From NCBI GenBank assembly GCA_038128265.1, contig JAYPJE010000033.1:1-46182 (forward strand): DNA of 46,182 bases, in the 5' to 3' direction. Positions 273-7,813 of this stretch are shown here, one piece after another. Positions within the stretch are counted from its first letter, which is position 1, and every line of letters begins with the position of its first letter. The stretch is from Gemmatimonadota bacterium (GTDB taxonomy: Bacteria; Latescibacterota; UBA2968; UBA8231). The translations under genes were made by a program, and so were the position numbers. Under the pieces are notes generated by a model. It worked only from the letters and a program-made list of their open reading frames with translations. It was not told where the DNA came from and searched no databases.

Positions 273-557
273 CGCTCGTCCCTCCCTCTCCTTTAGACAG
301 CGCGATGCATGCCGCGCTGGGACTGATTGGCCCGTCCAGTTTTTTATTATCCGGCAGACCGTTACCACTGTTAACTGCGAAACCAAAGCGCGCGTGCGTC
401 GGCAGAGGCCTTCACACGCAGACTCTAGGCTTCAGTCAATCAAATACAAGAGACCCGGTCGGGCAAACTCTTTTCCGATTCGTCGACGGATACTGCGTCT
501 GGTGCTCGGACGCCGCTGGTCGAAGTATGTCCCATACACCTGCTGCTGCGTTTGCCC

Positions 558-2333
558 ATGCCCTTTACTTTCGCTTATTTTCCGCAGCACACTCATCTGC
601 ACCCAAATGGAGCATATGGAATGGGCGTATTTTACGACTTGGGTCGCCCCGTCGTCGGCGGCTGGATGGGCGGAGGTTGGTTACTACACGACCCCGTGCG
701 GGAATTAGATCTCCTTTGGGGCGGCGAATTCGGCCAAGAGGGTGCGGTGCTCTTTGCCATTGACGTGGACAGCGGGCACACCGTCGAAGAATTTCGCATT
801 GGCTGCCGCGAATTTAGCGCCACGGCCGATCCACAAACCCATACCTTGTGGATATGCACCTACCACGGCCTGTACCAACCGGGCCACCTGCTGCTCTCCT
901 GGAACCCCCGCGATCGGCAGCTGGTATCGCACGGGTTTCCGCCCCTCGTCGACCAGCGCTTCTGCGGCTCACCCCTGATTGCGCCCGATGGGACCATTTA
1001 TCTGGGCACACACCCACACGGCCACCTCGTGCAGTATGATCCACAGCGCCAGCGCTGGCGCGACTGCGGCCAGCAGGCCCTGCCTCCCATCGTGCCCGAC
1101 CAGCATATCTGGTGCTACCCACGCCAGGTGCTCGACAGCGGTGAAGTAGTCTGCAATATTGCGCGCGATCCGGTTTCCAATGTCGCCTTTGATCCGCAAA
1201 GCGGTCAGCGCCGAGCGCTCGACTCGGTGCCGGAAGCACCATCGCCAATACCCCCCACCCGCGACGCGCGCGCCCAGTTTCGTCTCGATGCGCGCTATGA
1301 GCTCGATGGACAGCTGCGCACGAGCGATTACCAGCCTAAAGTTGCCACCGACATTGTCGGTCTCAACCTCGGACCGGATGGCAACGTTTACGGCAGCACG
1401 ATCATATCTATGCACGTTTTTTGTTTCCAGCGAGGCGAGCGCCGCTTAGAAGATCTCGGCCGCGTAGGCTGGGGCGGAGGGGAAATTTACGACGTCATCG
1501 CCCATCGCGACCGCCTCTATATGGGAAGCTACTCAGGCGGGTATTGGGGCGTCTACGATCCAACGAAAGCCTGGAACCCCTGCCCCGAAAGCGAGGGACG
1601 CGATACGGCGGCCAACCCACACAGCTTTGGCCTGATCGGCGACGATATGAACCGCCCCTTTGAATACGCCACCGGGCCCGATGAGTGCATATACATTGCC
1701 TGCCGCGCGAACTATCGCCTGCCCGGCGGCGGCCTGGCGCGATTCTGCCCAGACGGCGAATCGATGCGCGTTTTTCGCGACCTAGAGCAGAGCGTGCAGG
1801 CCGTTGCGGCCGACGAGCGCTATGTCTACGGAGGAACCAGTATATCCGGCGGCAGGGGCTGCATCGAGACGACGACGCAGGGGCGATTCTTCCTCTTTGA
1901 TGTAGAGCGCGAGGAGCGCGCTTTCGAGTGCATACCCGACCCCCAGGCCGTAGCCGTTACATCGCTGGCCGTGAGCCATCGCTCCAAGCTCGTCTACGGC
2001 AGCACCAGCGCATCGACCCTCTTTGCCTTCGACGTCGACCAGCGCCAGATCGTCAAACGATGGCAGGCGCCGAGCGCCGGCACCCCGCTAATGGGCGTGC
2101 CCGAAACCTACGGCGTTATTCATCTAACGTGCGGTCAAGACGGCGATATCTACGGCGTGACGCAGAGCGAAGTATTTAAACTAGACGTAGTCGCAGAACG
2201 CCTTATCCAATTGGATACTCCACCCATTCCCGATCTCTATCAGATAATCGAAGGCGACCCCGGCGTCTTCTACATAGGTGCGCGCGGCCACCTGCTCGAA
2301 TACCACCTGCGCGACCAACCCCACTATCGCTGA
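558..2333 (+). CDS. Cytoplasmic beta-propeller repeat protein, function unknown
   Basis: Recurrent blade-like motifs (PDGTIYLGT, GPDGNVYGST, GPDECIYIA, GQDGDIYGVT). No signal peptide. Start is ATG 558 or TTG 552. Confidence 0.75.
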   Translation: MPFTFAYFPQHTHLHPNGAYGMGVFYDLGRPVVGGWMGGGWLLHDPVRELDLLWGGEFGQEGAVLFAIDVDSGHTVEEFRIGCREFSATADPQTHTLWICTYHGLYQPGHLLLSWNPRDRQLVSHGFPPLVDQRFCGSPLIAPDGTIYLGTHPHGHLVQYDPQRQRWRDCGQQALPPIVPDQHIWCYPRQVLDSGEVVCNIARDPVSNVAFDPQSGQRRALDSVPEAPSPIPPTRDARAQFRLDARYELDGQLRTSDYQPKVATDIVGLNLGPDGNVYGSTIISMHVFCFQRGERRLEDLGRVGWGGGEIYDVIAHRDRLYMGSYSGGYWGVYDPTKAWNPCPESEGRDTAANPHSFGLIGDDMNRPFEYATGPDECIYIACRANYRLPGGGLARFCPDGESMRVFRDLEQSVQAVAADERYVYGGTSISGGRGCIETTTQGRFFLFDVEREERAFECIPDPQAVAVTSLAVSHRSKLVYGSTSASTLFAFDVDQRQIVKRWQAPSAGTPLMGVPETYGVIHLTCGQDGDIYGVTQSEVFKLDVVAERLIQLDTPPIPDLYQIIEGDPGVFYIGARGHLLEYHLRDQPHYR

Positions 2334-2344
2334 GAGGAACTGCT

Positions 2345-3121
2345 ATGTTCGAACCCATCAACGCGTTTCGCCAACGCCTCGGCGAAGGCGAAGTGCTCGT
2401 TGGCACCAGCGTCGCACTGAGCGATCCCCAGACCAGCGAAGCACTGGCCCCATCGCTCGACTTTTTGTGGATCGACTTAGAACACGCCCCCATGAGCCCC
2501 GAGGCCATGCGCGCCCACCTGCTGGCAGCGCGCTACAAACAAACTCCCGTCGTCGTTCGCGTGGCTGACTACAGCACGCCCTTTGTAAAAAACGCGCTCG
2601 ACTCCGGCGCACCGGGCGTTATCGCTCCCCAAATCAAAAATGCCGACCAAGTGCGCGCCTTTGTCGAAGACTGTCGCTATCCAACCCAGGGGCGGCGTGG
2701 CTTTGGCCCCAACGTCCCCTCTGACTACGGACGCGATGCCGGCCCTGCATACGTAGCGCGGGCCAATGCAGGCGTTTTTGCCGCTGTGATGATCGAAACA
2801 GTAGAAGCCATTGAGGCCATTGACGAGATTGTCGCCGTTCCCGGTTTAGACTCTATCGTCCTCGGCCCGTGGGACCTGTCCGGCTCAGTTGGCCACCTCG
2901 GCGAAGTGGATCACCCCGACGTAGTTTCAGCTTTAGAAAAGGCCATTGCCGCAGCGCGCAACGCCGGTCTCTTTGTCGGTTCCGGGATGGGCCTCGACCC
3001 AGGCTTTGGCCGCACCATGATGGAACGCGGCGTGCAGTGGCTGCAAATGAGCAACGACTGCGGCCTGCTTATCTGGGCGGCCGAGCACATGCGGCGCGGC
3101 GTTCTGCCCTCTGACGGATAG
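2345..3121 (+). CDS. HpcH/HpaI-family class II pyruvate aldolase
   Basis: Motifs DFLWIDLEHAP, CRYPTQGRRGFG, MIETVEA, GPWDLS. GAGGA RBS, 11 bp after the upstream stop. Confidence 0.9.
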   Translation: MFEPINAFRQRLGEGEVLVGTSVALSDPQTSEALAPSLDFLWIDLEHAPMSPEAMRAHLLAARYKQTPVVVRVADYSTPFVKNALDSGAPGVIAPQIKNADQVRAFVEDCRYPTQGRRGFGPNVPSDYGRDAGPAYVARANAGVFAAVMIETVEAIEAIDEIVAVPGLDSIVLGPWDLSGSVGHLGEVDHPDVVSALEKAIAAARNAGLFVGSGMGLDPGFGRTMMERGVQWLQMSNDCGLLIWAAEHMRRGVLPSDG

Positions 3122-3212: not shown

Positions 3213-4289
3213 CTACCAGTTGGGCGAGGTGAATCCCTGACCTGCCGTGAGCCGGCGGGCGACCAGCGCAATGTGCGGATGTGGGTCGTGTAGAGCCGAT
3301 TCAAACATGTCGCGATAGGCTTTGGGATCAAAGTGCTCTAGGCATTTGGCTGCGCTCAGGCGCACGTGCACCTCCGGGTCCGTCAAGCCATTCCAACACC
3401 ACGATGCCGCTTCCACACCCCCGCGCAGAGCCAACACTTCAATGGCTGCCGCACGCAGGCGCTTGTCGTTGTTGTGCGCTATCTCTCTAACGTCTTCGCT
3501 TTCGACTTCCTCGCACCGGCGCATTACGTTGAGTGCCGTCACGCGGACCTCAGCTTCGGCGTCTTCTAACATCATGCGACACCATTCGAATAGATCGGGA
3601 TCGCCCGAATCGGCCAGCAGCCAAAGCCCGCGCTGACGGCGTTTGGCCTTGGAAGACTCGAGGCATTCGAGCGCTTCGAGGGCCCGGGGATCATCGGCAT
3701 CCGTGGCGTCTTCTTCTCCACCTTCCCAGGGTACGACTTCGGTTCGACGCCAGGTCCGCAGGTGCTGCAGGTCTACTTCAAATCCAGCGAAAAGAGTCGG
3801 TAGCCAGGCACGTGCACGCTCAAGGATTTCCCTTTCGCCCAGATTGGCGCGAGGATGGGCCGTTAGGCGCTCGTCGACCCAACGCGCCAAGCGCTGTATG
3901 CCCTCCTGGTGCGGCTGTGCCCCTCTATGTGATTTTACATCGAGTAGGCTGTTGATCCACTGCGCTAGCTGCCGCGGCGTCTCCGGCACGTTGGCAACCC
4001 CCGTCCGAGTGCGCACGGATTCGGGCGGCACATTACCGCGAATCGAGATCACACTGCCATTGGCAATAACTTTTCCGCGACCAAAGCGGCGGCGTAGCTG
4101 CTCGACGTCAATATCGCAGGTGAGGACGACGGGCCGATCCTTAGCGCGGCGCGCCTGACTGCGCGCTCGCTGAGCGGCATAGGCACTGCTGTGGGCAAAC
4201 CAAACTCTGCGCGATGGAGGCTTAGGTCGAAGTCCTTCGCGCGCAATGCGCCGAGCGCGGTCGCGCGTGGTTCCGTGGTAAACGATCAT
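3213..4289 (-). CDS. Tpt1/KptA-like ADP-ribosyltransferase-fold (NAD-lobe) domain fused to C-terminal HEAT/PBS-lyase repeats
   Basis: ATG 4289 after GGGAGAAAAGG. N-terminal YHGT...I..EGL.P...VWFA...PVVL...VPPE. C-terminal repeats DAEAEVRVTAL, DKRLRAAAIEVL, DPEVHVRLSAAKCL, DPHPHIALVA. Confidence 0.75.
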   Translation of the reverse strand: MIVYHGTTRDRARRIAREGLRPKPPSRRVWFAHSSAYAAQRARSQARRAKDRPVVLTCDIDVEQLRRRFGRGKVIANGSVISIRGNVPPESVRTRTGVANVPETPRQLAQWINSLLDVKSHRGAQPHQEGIQRLARWVDERLTAHPRANLGEREILERARAWLPTLFAGFEVDLQHLRTWRRTEVVPWEGGEEDATDADDPRALEALECLESSKAKRRQRGLWLLADSGDPDLFEWCRMMLEDAEAEVRVTALNVMRRCEEVESEDVREIAHNNDKRLRAAAIEVLALRGGVEAASWCWNGLTDPEVHVRLSAAKCLEHFDPKAYRDMFESALHDPHPHIALVARRLTAGQGFTSPNW

Positions 4290-4479
4290 GGCCTTTTCTC
4301 CCTTGCGCGCTGTCGTAGCACCGCATCGCCAGGAACGTCCTTCCCGTAGCGCTGCGCAGCGGCCAGCCAACCGCTCTGTGAAAGTATCCCCTCAGGCTCT
4401 ATATTCTCGCCCCTGGCAATAGTACGCATTCGCTGCTCACACATCCATCGGGCAAACCCGAGGTTCACATCGCCATGCC

Positions 4480-5805
4480 ATGTCCAGCCACCGCCTGCTG
4501 ACCTACTGTTATCTGGTCTCGCTCCTCCTGCACGGATCGGTTCTCTATCTGTATCAGGCTCTCTACACTAGCCCAGTTCAAGCACCGGTAGTGCGCCGTT
4601 TTACCAGCGCAGTGACCAGCGCCGCGCAGCGCTTTGGCGGCGCGGCATCACCCGACCTGCAGCAGGTGCACATGGAGCAATTGGCTTCCAATGGCCAACC
4701 CGTAGACGCGCCGGAAATGACGGCTGAACGCATACCCACGCCGGGGGTAGATCCCGACGCGGAACCGCTGAGTGCCCGCCCACCCGAAAAGGAGCGCAAC
4801 CTGCTGCCGCCGTCCAACGCGGAAGAAGAGGCGCGCCTCGCCGTAGAGGCCGGCCCAATGGCCAAACTTGACGAATTTTCCATGGACCTGATCGACCTGG
4901 CAACACTGGCGCAGAGCGAGCGCTTTAAAGCGGCCATTGTCGTCGCAGAAGACAGCCTGCAGCGCCCGGAGGGATTTATCAACTTTACCCACCTACTGCT
5001 CGACGGCACCACCGACAACTACCGACTGGAAGATCTTGCTCGCTTTATGCGCGACCATACCTCCATCATCGCCCATGCACGCGGCGTCGCAGTGCGCGGC
5101 TTCAGCAGCGACAGACTGCTCGAAGATCCCATCCACTTTCTCTTTCCAGGCCCCCTGCGCGGACGAGCATCTAGTCAAGAACGCATCTTTCTCAACGACA
5201 GCGACAGCGCTCGTTTAGGCCACTATCTGCGCGCTGGCGGCTTTCTCTTTGTCGACGCCGGTGATGGCCCTGATGACCACTGGTTTCTCAAGGAGGCGCT
5301 GCGGCAGATTCGCCGCGCTCTACAGGGCCGAGGTCAAGTCGTCGAGCTTCCTCTCGACCATCCCGTATACCGCGCCTACTATACCTACGAAGACGGCTTC
5401 CCCGGCGAAAATAAGCGCGCGGTAATGCGCTTCCCTATTGGATTGGGCAATCCATGGTACTATCCCGAGCGCACGCCGTGCATGGGCACGCTGCGCGGCC
5501 TGTGGGGTGTCGAAACGGCCGAGGGCCAACTGGTTGCCATACTCAGCGATCTCGATATGCGCCGGCGCTGGGTCGGCGAACCGCTGGCCAATGGAGCCTG
5601 TCAAACGGAAGAGGAACAAGCGGAGGGTGAAGGGAACGAGGAACCGGGCGCAGGCGAAGCGGAAATCGTGCGCCTGCCCTCTCTACAGGCGGCGACTAAC
5701 GTCGTGGTGTACGCGATGACGCGACCCGGTGGACTCACCGTAAAGATGGCCCCCTTTGCATGGAAGGAGCGCACGCCGTCTGAGAAAGCACAACGCCGGC
5801 CCTAA
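4480..5805 (+). CDS. Membrane-anchored DUF4159-domain protein
   Basis: N-terminal TM helix with SLLLH (TonB-anchor-like), Pro/acidic linker, then YLRAGGFLFVD...ELPLDHPVY...ATNVVVYAMT as seen in DUF4159. Confidence 0.75.
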   Translation: MSSHRLLTYCYLVSLLLHGSVLYLYQALYTSPVQAPVVRRFTSAVTSAAQRFGGAASPDLQQVHMEQLASNGQPVDAPEMTAERIPTPGVDPDAEPLSARPPEKERNLLPPSNAEEEARLAVEAGPMAKLDEFSMDLIDLATLAQSERFKAAIVVAEDSLQRPEGFINFTHLLLDGTTDNYRLEDLARFMRDHTSIIAHARGVAVRGFSSDRLLEDPIHFLFPGPLRGRASSQERIFLNDSDSARLGHYLRAGGFLFVDAGDGPDDHWFLKEALRQIRRALQGRGQVVELPLDHPVYRAYYTYEDGFPGENKRAVMRFPIGLGNPWYYPERTPCMGTLRGLWGVETAEGQLVAILSDLDMRRRWVGEPLANGACQTEEEQAEGEGNEEPGAGEAEIVRLPSLQAATNVVVYAMTRPGGLTVKMAPFAWKERTPSEKAQRRP

Positions 5806-6961: not shown

Positions 6962-7813
6962 TTACATCTCGCTGGGCAGCCGTACGCTCGCCATCAACGA
7001 GCGGAGGCGCGCCCGTTTAACCTCACCGCGCGCTTCGCACCAGGGTCGATTTACCCAGTCCACCGCCCATGCCTCGCCGCTCCGACATCCGATGCGCGCG
7101 GCTGGCAGGCGCAGGGTTTCGGCGGCTCGTTCGTCTGCGCCAACGCGCGCCGCCAAGCGCTCTGCCAAGGCGCTAGCCCACGCCCATAAGCGCTCGTCAG
7201 CACAGCGCATCGCCTCTGCAAGCAGGGCATCAACCGCTTCGACCTGCACGGCCAACTCGGCGGCACGCTCTTGCCCAACCGGACCTGGCGATGTCGCCTC
7301 CTCCGTCCAGTCGAGAAACTCTCCCCGCTCCACCTGGTAAAAATCGTTGAGCAAGACCGCCACGCAGCGCGCAGCCACCAAGTGTACGGCTCGATTGTCT
7401 GCGTCGGTGAGCACTTCTCCGCACAGGGCGAGTACGGCGACCCAAACCGAAAGTTCCGTGCGCCCAGCAGCATAATCATCAAGGGCAGAAAATACGCCCT
7501 CCGCACGAGCCCACCCAGCGCCCTGCACTGCTCTATCGCCGATGACTTTGCCCCAAGCGTAAAGCCCGCGCGCCACGCAGACCTGTCGGCCATCGACCCC
7601 AATTGGGTCATCCTGCACCGCAGCGCACAGGGCCGCTACCGAATCGGCAGCAGGCCCCTCACCTTCACCAACGACTTCGCCGCCATCCACCCACTTCGCC
7701 CAGCACCAGAGCCTCTCGGCAAACGCCTCACCCTCGACCGCTTCATCGCTCGACCATGCCTGTAACAGGCGTGCTCCCTCTAGCCTGTAGGCGGCACGCC
7801 AGCTATTTTCCAC
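6962..7813 (-). CDS. Hypothetical protein (helical, Ala/Trp/acidic-rich)
   Basis: 283-aa ORF packed between operon neighbours (2 bp and 17 bp gaps). No motif recognised. Confidence 0.65.
   Translation of the reverse strand: MENSWRAAYRLEGARLLQAWSSDEAVEGEAFAERLWCWAKWVDGGEVVGEGEGPAADSVAALCAAVQDDPIGVDGRQVCVARGLYAWGKVIGDRAVQGAGWARAEGVFSALDDYAAGRTELSVWVAVLALCGEVLTDADNRAVHLVAARCVAVLLNDFYQVERGEFLDWTEEATSPGPVGQERAAELAVQVEAVDALLAEAMRCADERLWAWASALAERLAARVGADERAAETLRLPAARIGCRSGEAWAVDWVNRPWCEARGEVKRARLRSLMASVRLPSEM

Follow-up and report, generated by a model that had tools for sequence, protein, structure and literature searches.

The stretch analysed here, referred to below as the window, comprises the 46,182 nucleotides (nt) of contig JAYPJE010000033.1 (assembly GCA_038128265.1), deposited under Gemmatimonadota and placed in Latescibacterota by GTDB. 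One gene on its minus strand, P0001, encodes a protein of 358 amino acids (aa) that an earlier note, made from the letters alone, had described as an ADP-ribosyltransferase (ART) lobe like the nicotinamide adenine dinucleotide (NAD+)-binding lobe of the RNA 2'-phosphotransferase Tpt1/KptA, fused to HEAT repeats. P0001 would be a soluble protein of three modules from a family that carries no name, with an N-terminal lobe of the ART superfamily on the Tpt1 branch, a connector domain and a HEAT arm (Table 1). The architecture and the connector domain are new, and so is the partner gene that accompanies the family in an operon in other phyla. The longest open frame reaches upstream to a TTG at 4370; ATG 4289 is nonetheless the start, because all 40 aligned homologues begin M-I/V-V/L-Y-H-G-T. 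As the earlier note had stated, the gene possesses its own ribosome-binding box and is oriented opposite to both neighbours.

Table 1. Features of the P0001 gene and its surroundings, followed by related genes elsewhere. Plain positions are those of the window; a prefixed L number names another locus.
Feature	Position	Strand	Remarks
P0001, whole gene	3213..4289	-	358 codons plus stop at 3213-3215
Ribosome-binding box, GGGAG	4298..4302	-	8 nt before ATG 4289, from sequence
Minimal ART-fold domain, aa 1-97	3999..4289	-	nearest to NAD+ lobe of Tpt1/KptA; net charge +16
Y4-H5-G6-T7	4269..4280	-	counterpart of Tpt1 HGT; invariant 40/40; role from the accessible part of PMC10622864
V29-W30-F31-A32	4194..4205	-	for Tpt1 V-H-L-S, by HMMER alignment to PhoTpt1; Trp in 40/40
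Conserved helical domain and hairpin, aa 100-182	3744..3992	-	W111-x-N113, G123, G130, R133, W137, LPExF167, D173
Linker, aa 183-199	3693..3743	-	acidic (charge -7), poorly conserved, low confidence
Five HEAT repeats (10 helices), aa 200-358	3216..3692	-	net charge -7
HpcH/HpaI aldolase gene	2345-3121	+	
DUF4159 gene	4480-5805	+	
Two-lobed Tpt1 of the window's genome, 216 aa	L093:1351-2001 (contig C36)	-	PF01885, 93 bits
HMGL-like, connector and Cache protein	L089:1956-3803	-	
HMGL-like, connector and Cache protein	L090:605-2428	-	
HMGL-like, connector and Cache protein	L091:45-1898	+	
ART-less paralogues	L066:7614-8735, L067:7611-8729, L072:7611-8735, L073:7611-8735		Opitutales labels
Recurrent extracytoplasmic function (ECF) sigma genes	L033:977-1543, L034:6405-8384, L045:11534-14176, L056:10351-11031, L057:331-1752		

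The likeness to Tpt1 resides in the N-terminal lobe. NCBIfam NF002013 matches aa 2-94 on profile positions 97-180 of 183 (E 4.8e-8), with a score of 32.7 bits that does not reach the curated cut-off of 231, and Pfam PTS_2-RNA (PF01885) weakly matches aa 2-60 on positions 102-155 of 177 (E 0.008), again below threshold with 16.6 bits against 26. A phmmer search of the PDB with P0001 retrieved archaeal Tpt1 chains at E 0.008-0.06, and a 48-row profile of the domain found PhoTpt1 8tfi at E 0.0015 (aa 2-92 on 92-173), followed in second place by PARP10 at E 0.014. AlphaFold2 modelled the N-domain alone with a predicted local distance difference test score (pLDDT) of 94.2 and a predicted template modelling score (pTM) of 0.84. 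When this model was compared with the PDB by Foldseek, Tpt1/KptA chains made up 13 of the first 15 rows shown, led by 8tg3 (E 1.3e-5, TMq 0.66), with pertussis toxin S1 and other ARTs ranking after them; the full-length model also recovered Tpt1 chains, at E about 2e-3. The likeness to the C-terminal lobe of Tpt1 is beyond chance, and the N-domain has an ART fold; among known proteins, the NAD+ lobe of Tpt1 is its closest relative. The motif series that had been read in aa 1-93 is present as described, except that seven residues, not six, separate YHGT from Ile15.

P0001 is nevertheless not a true Tpt1, as the earlier note had also held. The protein begins three residues before HGT, as do all 40 homologues, and thus has no N-terminal RNA lobe. 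The note had assigned the whole catalytic Arg-His-Arg-Arg tetrad to that missing lobe; the lobe is indeed absent, but only the first three tetrad residues belong to it, the fourth (PhoTpt1 Arg115) being located in the NAD+ lobe according to the accessible part of PMC10622864. Arginines are kept by the family near the site of this fourth residue, whereas Arg27 and Arg28 stand three and two residues before Trp30, compared with four between Arg115 and His119 in PhoTpt1, which leaves their equivalence to Arg115 uncertain. In addition, a second gene of this genome, on a different contig, encodes a two-lobed Tpt1, which covers positions 3-176 of 177 of the PF01885 profile and keeps LRH, the third Arg and R-x-x-VHLS; P0001 is therefore not the gene for the organism's Tpt1. 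The genome's Tpt1 itself reads L-Y-M-G-T-T for Y-H-G-T, with Met in place of the His that contacts the adenosine ribose.

The accessible part of PMC10622864 describes the NAD+ contacts of PhoTpt1: His95 and Thr97 with the adenosine ribose, the main chain of Gly96 with the nicotinamide amide, the main chains of Gly109 and Lys111 with the adenine, Arg115, Arg133 and His134 with the alpha phosphate, and His119 with the nicotinamide mononucleotide (NMN) ribose and the nicotinamide. The same source credits the archaeal Tpt1 enzymes with NAD+ glycohydrolase activity as well, and with action on NADP(H). The HMMER alignment places H5, G6 and T7 opposite His95, Gly96 and Thr97, G19 and R21 opposite Gly109 and Lys111, the S26-R28 stretch opposite Arg115, R48 and A49 opposite Arg133 and His134, and W30 opposite His119. 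The His-Gly-Thr motif of the NAD+ site is present in all aligned family members: H5, G6 and T7, together with G19, P22, S26, V29, W30, Y37, A38, R41 and A42, are identical in 40 of 40 sequences, and three arginines are near-invariant (R28 in 38, R47 in 34 and R48 in 35). The exchange of VHLS for VWFA, noted earlier, was confirmed by the alignment, and the second His of Tpt1 is represented by Trp30 in all 40 sequences. In the strand region of aa 74-88 the 40 sequences contain no invariant Glu or Asp, and the near-invariant D51 (37/40) lies outside it. Tpt1 likewise works without a catalytic Glu. The net charge of the 97-residue lobe averages +15.3 and stays between +12 and +18 in 40 sequences, with family means of -5.5 for the HEAT part and -3.4 for the linker; a lobe charge so high and so constant suggests a polyanionic ligand, for which nucleic acid would be the obvious candidate.

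A search of 5.8 billion clustered proteins returned 182 matches to P0001 at E up to 1e-3. The 120 homologues listed (353-411 aa, 98-100% query coverage, 43-99% identity) are named nothing beyond "hypothetical protein", and P0001 thus belongs to an unnamed bacterial family conserved over its full length of ~355 aa, with mean pairwise identities of 0.59 in the ART lobe, 0.51 in the middle domain and 0.52 in the HEAT part. Its members come from genomes with at least eight different phylum labels. Within the window's phylum, a match at E up to 1e-10 occurs in 46 of 168 genomes, and in seven of these it is one of the HMGL-like-Cache proteins described below; matches occur in one of seven other genomes of the window's genus versus 25 of 31 in another genus. 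In the Planctomycetota-type phylum of a Brocadiaceae-labelled carrier, only 3 of 201 sampled genomes, the query genome included, match at E up to 1e-20. Broken copies were found as well: those of G075 and G101 carry a TAG, those of G106 and G072 lie in pieces, and the second copy of G076 carries a TAA. The patchy occurrence and the broken copies indicate that the ART-HEAT gene is accessory and often lost, yet it is strongly constrained where kept.

Relatives of the lobe extend beyond this family. A HMMER search with aa 1-110 against 1.84 billion representatives yielded 104 proteins at E up to 1e-3, 61 of them at 1e-10 or better, and those outside the family are small proteins with the pattern W/Y-HGT...W/F-F-T/A...PVV-x-C-x-IDL (e.g. 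P0199-P0220, E 1e-4 to 1e-9). These uncharacterised ART-like proteins share the motif set of P0001 but differ from it in having no HEAT arm and other N-terminal parts; among 32 lobe relatives scanned, seven contain HTH_17, one a MuF domain, and many show weak PARP or ART-PolyVal matches. The best look-alikes in a viral structure library are stand-alone phage proteins of ~100 aa that are labelled DarT or Arr, or unnamed. The minimal ARTs Arr, DarT and the Rhs toxin TreX reach lower structural scores against P0001 than Tpt1 does, give no sequence-family match at Pfam E up to 1 and differ in catalytic pattern; the neighbours of P0001 include neither an antitoxin-like nor an immunity gene. The aa 1-110 pass also retrieved P0126, a metagenomic protein of 1543 aa in which an ART-HEAT protein is fused to an ECF sigma factor and to CarboxypepD_reg repeats; a search with aa 1-200 for fusions longer than 627 aa returned none.

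The region between lobe and HEAT arm, which the earlier note had left as unrecognised, turned out to be a recurrent mobile domain. In the full-length model, aa 105-181 form three helices and a hairpin. W111, G123, R133, W137 and F167 are invariant in 40 of 40 sequences, N113, G130, P164 and D173 are kept in 39, and K119, K/R122, R133 and R141 are conserved basic residues. No Pfam model matched the domain at E up to 1, its profile found only noise in the PDB (E 1.4), and nothing usable came from the ESM Atlas with aa 98-196. It does recur in other proteins. Paralogues of 372-374 aa with Opitutales labels, in which a different helical N-terminus of ~130 aa replaces the ART lobe, match aa 104-346 at 40% identity. 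The family profile also matched, exclusively over aa 92/103-185 and with E between 4e-12 and 7e-11, seven proteins of ~607-617 aa whose open frames span 617-795 aa; all come from small genomes (1-2.6 Mb) of the window's phylum. The three of these that were scanned consist of an HMGL-like barrel of the homocitrate/isopropylmalate synthase-like kind, a weak HCS_D2 match, the connector stretch and a C-terminal Cache domain, and hhalign aligned the middle domain to residues 398-473 of one 615-aa representative with a probability of 96.7% (E 3.4e-10, 76 columns). Finally, the domain's W-[VI]-N start is present in the small, distant lobe relatives P0194, P0204 and P0220, which have no HEAT repeats. 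Because of this recurrence in ART-less paralogues, HMGL-like-Cache proteins and small lobe relatives, the middle region is a domain in its own right, not filler, and with its various companions it behaves as a connector that joins a catalytic head to a tail for regulation or binding. The resemblance to homocitrate/isopropylmalate synthase-like enzymes consists of the match to the stretch just after the barrel and the weak HCS_D2 hit; no solved LeuA or HCS chain aligns by sequence over that stretch, the PDB alignments ending near residue 380-396, and equivalence with LeuA subdomains is only positional. The connector is a new unit of protein architecture, common to the P0001 family and to HMGL-like synthase-Cache enzymes. 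Two minor observations concern these relatives: at L089 and L091 the HMGL-like-Cache gene adjoins a gene for an aconitase/isopropylmalate-dehydratase-like large subunit, and at L075:7602-8729 an ART-less paralogue is split into two open reading frames (ORFs) by a stop, on a Latescibacterota chromosome that also carries a full copy.

The full-length model (pLDDT 85.0, pTM 0.64) separates the connector from the C-terminal arm by a disordered linker whose residues 183-195 have a pLDDT below 50 and whose mean pairwise identity over aa 183-199 is 0.20. The five HEAT repeats counted in the earlier note are borne out by ten helices over aa 201-348 of the model, by HEAT_2 (E 1.2e-11; 45.2 bits against a cut-off of 27.7) and HEAT (26.6 bits against 23.5) and by matches to alphaRep and YibA. 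HEAT proteins filled the Foldseek list obtained with the whole model, in which the middle domain was barely covered. HEAT arms serve as protein-binding scaffolds.

We then surveyed 79 loci taken from one-genome-per-species contigs for their genomic context. At 39 of them, a gene for a protein of ~180-215 aa lies upstream on the same strand (tblastn; one ORF call is 330 aa), with a gap of 11-48 nt to the ART-HEAT start in the 28 loci with a full upstream match, and with longer gaps or an upstream gene cut by the contig end in the remainder. All 39 fall among the 47 loci outside the Latescibacterota and Gemmatimonadota labels, where the other eight are four ART-less paralogues, one locus without upstream DNA, and L049, L054 and L068; tblastn found the upstream gene at none of the 32 loci labelled Latescibacterota or Gemmatimonadota. 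The upstream protein scores over the cut-off of Pfam Guanylate_cyc in all four copies scanned (E 1.7e-10 to 2.8e-8) and matches the PADLOC PycC models (PDLC00734) in both copies scanned (E 1.4e-17 and 1.1e-18). The 16 operon-linked copies aligned are 54-72% identical (tblastn, 46-96% to other loci), and all keep FFD-L/F-S, V-K-x-x-GDA, F/Y-D-V/I-x-G and V-N-x-A-x-x-L-G-R-R-G, in which we recognise the two metal Asp of class III cyclases, their adenine pair (Lys/Asp) and their transition-state pair (Asn/Arg). On these motifs, the upstream protein would be a minimal class III adenylate cyclase. The term stand-alone, applied to P0001 in the earlier note, is hence apt for the window's clade but not for the sister clade, in which the gene is operonic with the small cyclase. 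A complex prediction for the L033 ART-HEAT protein and its cognate cyclase, made without control runs, scored 0.00 and speaks neither for nor against an interaction.

A maximum-likelihood tree of 69 full-length proteins, from which ten of the 79 loci were omitted (five ART-less, four cut or broken, and L078 with frame breaks), is unrooted, comes from a quick search and shows a split in two (SH-aLRT 91). The 30 rows on one side are all cyclase-less and carry the labels Latescibacterota or Gemmatimonadota; the window and L001, its nearest relative at 63% identity, are among them. The other side comprises 38 cyclase-linked rows and L049. Two changes of cyclase linkage suffice on this tree. Synteny is stable in the window's clade, with the ART-HEAT gene placed after an epimerase-like gene and another, unnamed one, and in the window and L001 the DUF4159 gene is inserted in the opposite direction; no functional partner is readable from this context. 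The window's genome contains only cyclase domains of 30-31% identity, inside ORFs of 418 and 494 aa, and of five searched genomes of its relatives, three gave no match to the partner cyclase and two encode a 37-39% identical protein of ~200 aa elsewhere. Four proteins with Gemmatimonadota or Gemmatimonadetes labels (L016, L021, L055 and L001) are nested in or beside Latescibacterota-labelled ones, with branch lengths of 0.006-0.02 for L016 and L021, and the phylum labels of these metagenome-assembled genome records are probably inconsistent.

Taken together, we tentatively favour, with rather less than even confidence, the reading of P0001 as an NAD+-using enzyme of the Tpt1 chemical type, which transfers ADP-ribose to an anionic nucleophile on a polyanion or hydrolyses NAD+, and which employs the connector and HEAT arm for docking or restraint. 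The first module would be a minimal ART derived from a Tpt1/KptA-type NAD+ lobe and may bind NAD+ in the manner of Tpt1. The site would then consist of HGT for the adenosine ribose and the nicotinamide amide, the Gly19/Pro22 loop for the adenine and Arg47/48 together with Arg27/28 for the pyrophosphate, and Trp30 would stack on the nicotinamide riboside where Tpt1 has its His. Since the lobe, like Tpt1, seems to lack a catalytic Glu, its most likely chemistry would be either the hydrolysis of NAD+ or the transfer of ADP-ribose to an anionic nucleophile; a phosphate, on the end of a nucleic acid or on a nucleotide, would play the latter part, and the +15 surface may recruit the polyanion. Tpt1/KptA is the only ART known to use phosphate as a nucleophile, and its role in bacteria is unclear. 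The second module would then be a connector that travels with different catalytic heads, and the third may dock a partner or restrain the lobe. The sister-clade protein would work together with the minimal adenylate cyclase encoded just upstream; in the window's clade no cyclase partner gene adjoins. In favour of this enzymatic reading we count the conserved residues that align with the PhoTpt1 NAD+ contacts, the lack of an invariant acidic residue in aa 74-88, the constant lobe charge, the full-length conservation of the family, the further activities of archaeal Tpt1 and the operon with a cyclase that keeps the class III motifs. Several observations weigh against it. His119, which hydrogen-bonds to the NMN ribose in PhoTpt1, appears as Trp here, and P0001 has none of the three RNA-lobe residues with which Tpt1 positions the phosphate nucleophile. 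The middle domain bears no likeness to the RNA lobe (hhalign probability of 0.5% against the genome's own Tpt1), and the RH of its RHPG motif is not kept in the window protein, which reads P-H-Q-E-G. No cyclase orthologue was found in the window's genome, which is 84% complete. Macrodomain, ARH and NADAR genes, whose products remove ADP-ribose, are absent among the 121 flanking proteins of sister-clade loci, and none lies beside the window gene.

In the main rival reading, to which we give somewhat less weight, the lobe is a non-catalytic sensor, which only binds NAD+, ADP-ribose or another adenine nucleotide and regulates a partner via the connector and HEAT arm; this partner would be the minimal cyclase in the sister clade but a different protein in the clade of the window. 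The loss of the RNA-lobe catalytic His/Arg set and the apparent lack of a catalytic Glu would fit such a role, as would the scaffold function of HEAT arms. The partner cyclase is a bare catalytic domain and therefore would need an outside regulator, and the 40% identity at which ART-less paralogues keep the connector and HEAT repeats implies that this part has a role of its own. However, the invariance of HGT, W30 and R41 across phyla goes beyond the usual need of binding alone, the charge of +15 is not accounted for by mononucleotide sensing, and the window's clade keeps the protein without the cyclase. A Pycsar-like abortive infection system, in which a cyclic nucleotide made on infection switches the lobe on as an NADase or nucleic-acid ADP-ribosylating toxin and the window copy is an orphan effector, seems quite unlikely to us. 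The small class III cyclase scores better against the PycC models than against Guanylate_cyc, the spread is sporadic, as in the Planctomycetota-type phylum, and distant lobe relatives contain HTH_17, MuF and polyvalent-protein ART domains. The order of cyclase then effector, in the same orientation and with short gaps, also resembles the Pycsar operon layout given in the accessible part of PMC13069673. But P0001 has no domain binding cyclic nucleoside monophosphates at Pfam E up to 1, and no PycC-type cyclase is encoded in the window, whose clade keeps the gene in stable synteny without one. Both genes are unusually well conserved for defence genes, and the cyclase keeps what we take to be the Lys/Asp pair typical of adenylate cyclases. 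Most of the 121 flanks with a Pfam match are metabolic or housekeeping, with few defence-like exceptions (a cytosine methylase, a PIN protein, a PDDEXK/AAA protein and DUF1016), and a defence-island context for the pair was dropped on this ground. More broadly, the pair could be an undescribed two-gene module coupling a cyclic nucleotide to NAD+ chemistry, in which the bare adenylate or other nucleotidyl cyclase and an RNA-lobe-less, Tpt1-derived ART or NADase control each other, either to switch a signal or to defend the cell in the way of Pycsar, while the copies in Latescibacterota, the window's among them, would have been rewired to another input; we consider this speculative and rather unlikely.

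Two further explanations stay closer to known enzymes. P0001 might be a rearranged but working RNA 2'-phosphotransferase whose middle domain substitutes for the RNA lobe, an idea to which the position of that domain after the NAD+ lobe, its three helices with a hairpin and its conserved basic residues lend some appeal, and which we judge very improbable. The hhalign and PDB profile results given above speak against it and also led us to drop a circular permutation of Tpt1; moreover, the same domain occurs in HMGL-like synthases and ART-less proteins, in the window's clade the RHPG motif is without a conserved RH, and a two-lobed Tpt1 already exists in the genome. A small-molecule ADP-ribosyltransferase of the Arr type, modifying for instance an antibiotic or a metabolite, would match the minimal ART core of ~100 aa, yet a strongly cationic surface and a HEAT arm are unlike a drug-modifying enzyme, no resistance context was found among the window genes or the 121 flanking proteins, and we give this option hardly any credence.

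In the full-text literature outside subscription-only papers and supplements, including the accessible parts of PMC7824862, PMC9503650 and PMC13069673, we found neither the fusion of a Tpt1-type lobe to HEAT repeats nor its pairing with a cyclase described. Compared with Tpt1/KptA, a Tpt1-type NAD+ lobe has here been taken out of its enzyme, made strongly cationic and placed in a frame of connector and HEAT repeats, and in half of the loci its gene is paired with that of a minimal adenylate cyclase, an adjacency in other phyla that suggests an undescribed NAD-linked signalling module. If active, the family would extend ADP-ribosylation by a new branch, non-protein or regulatory, and would connect signalling of the cAMP type with that by NAD+; its proteins are small, presumably soluble and easy to express, and hence directly testable.

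A scan for promoters and terminators around the P0001 gene gave no signals above shuffles. An ECF sigma family recurs at five loci near the cyclase-ART-HEAT pair (Table 1), which may be chance in sigma-rich phyla, and the copy at L057 is fused to HEAT repeats. A histone-deacetylase-family gene lies directly 3' of the ART-HEAT gene at three Planctomycetota-labelled loci (L028:2513-3562, L036:9098-10135 and L039:9059-10135), and a NUDIX gene follows it at one Hebobacteria-labelled locus (L030:5800-6246). Elsewhere in the window, a 283-aa ORF at 6962-7813 (-), between BNR/sialidase-like and epimerase genes, has no Pfam or NCBIfam match, and a 593-aa ORF at 552-2333 (+) has a weak Kelch match only; both are conserved in L001 (clustered families F74 and F573/F77, respectively).

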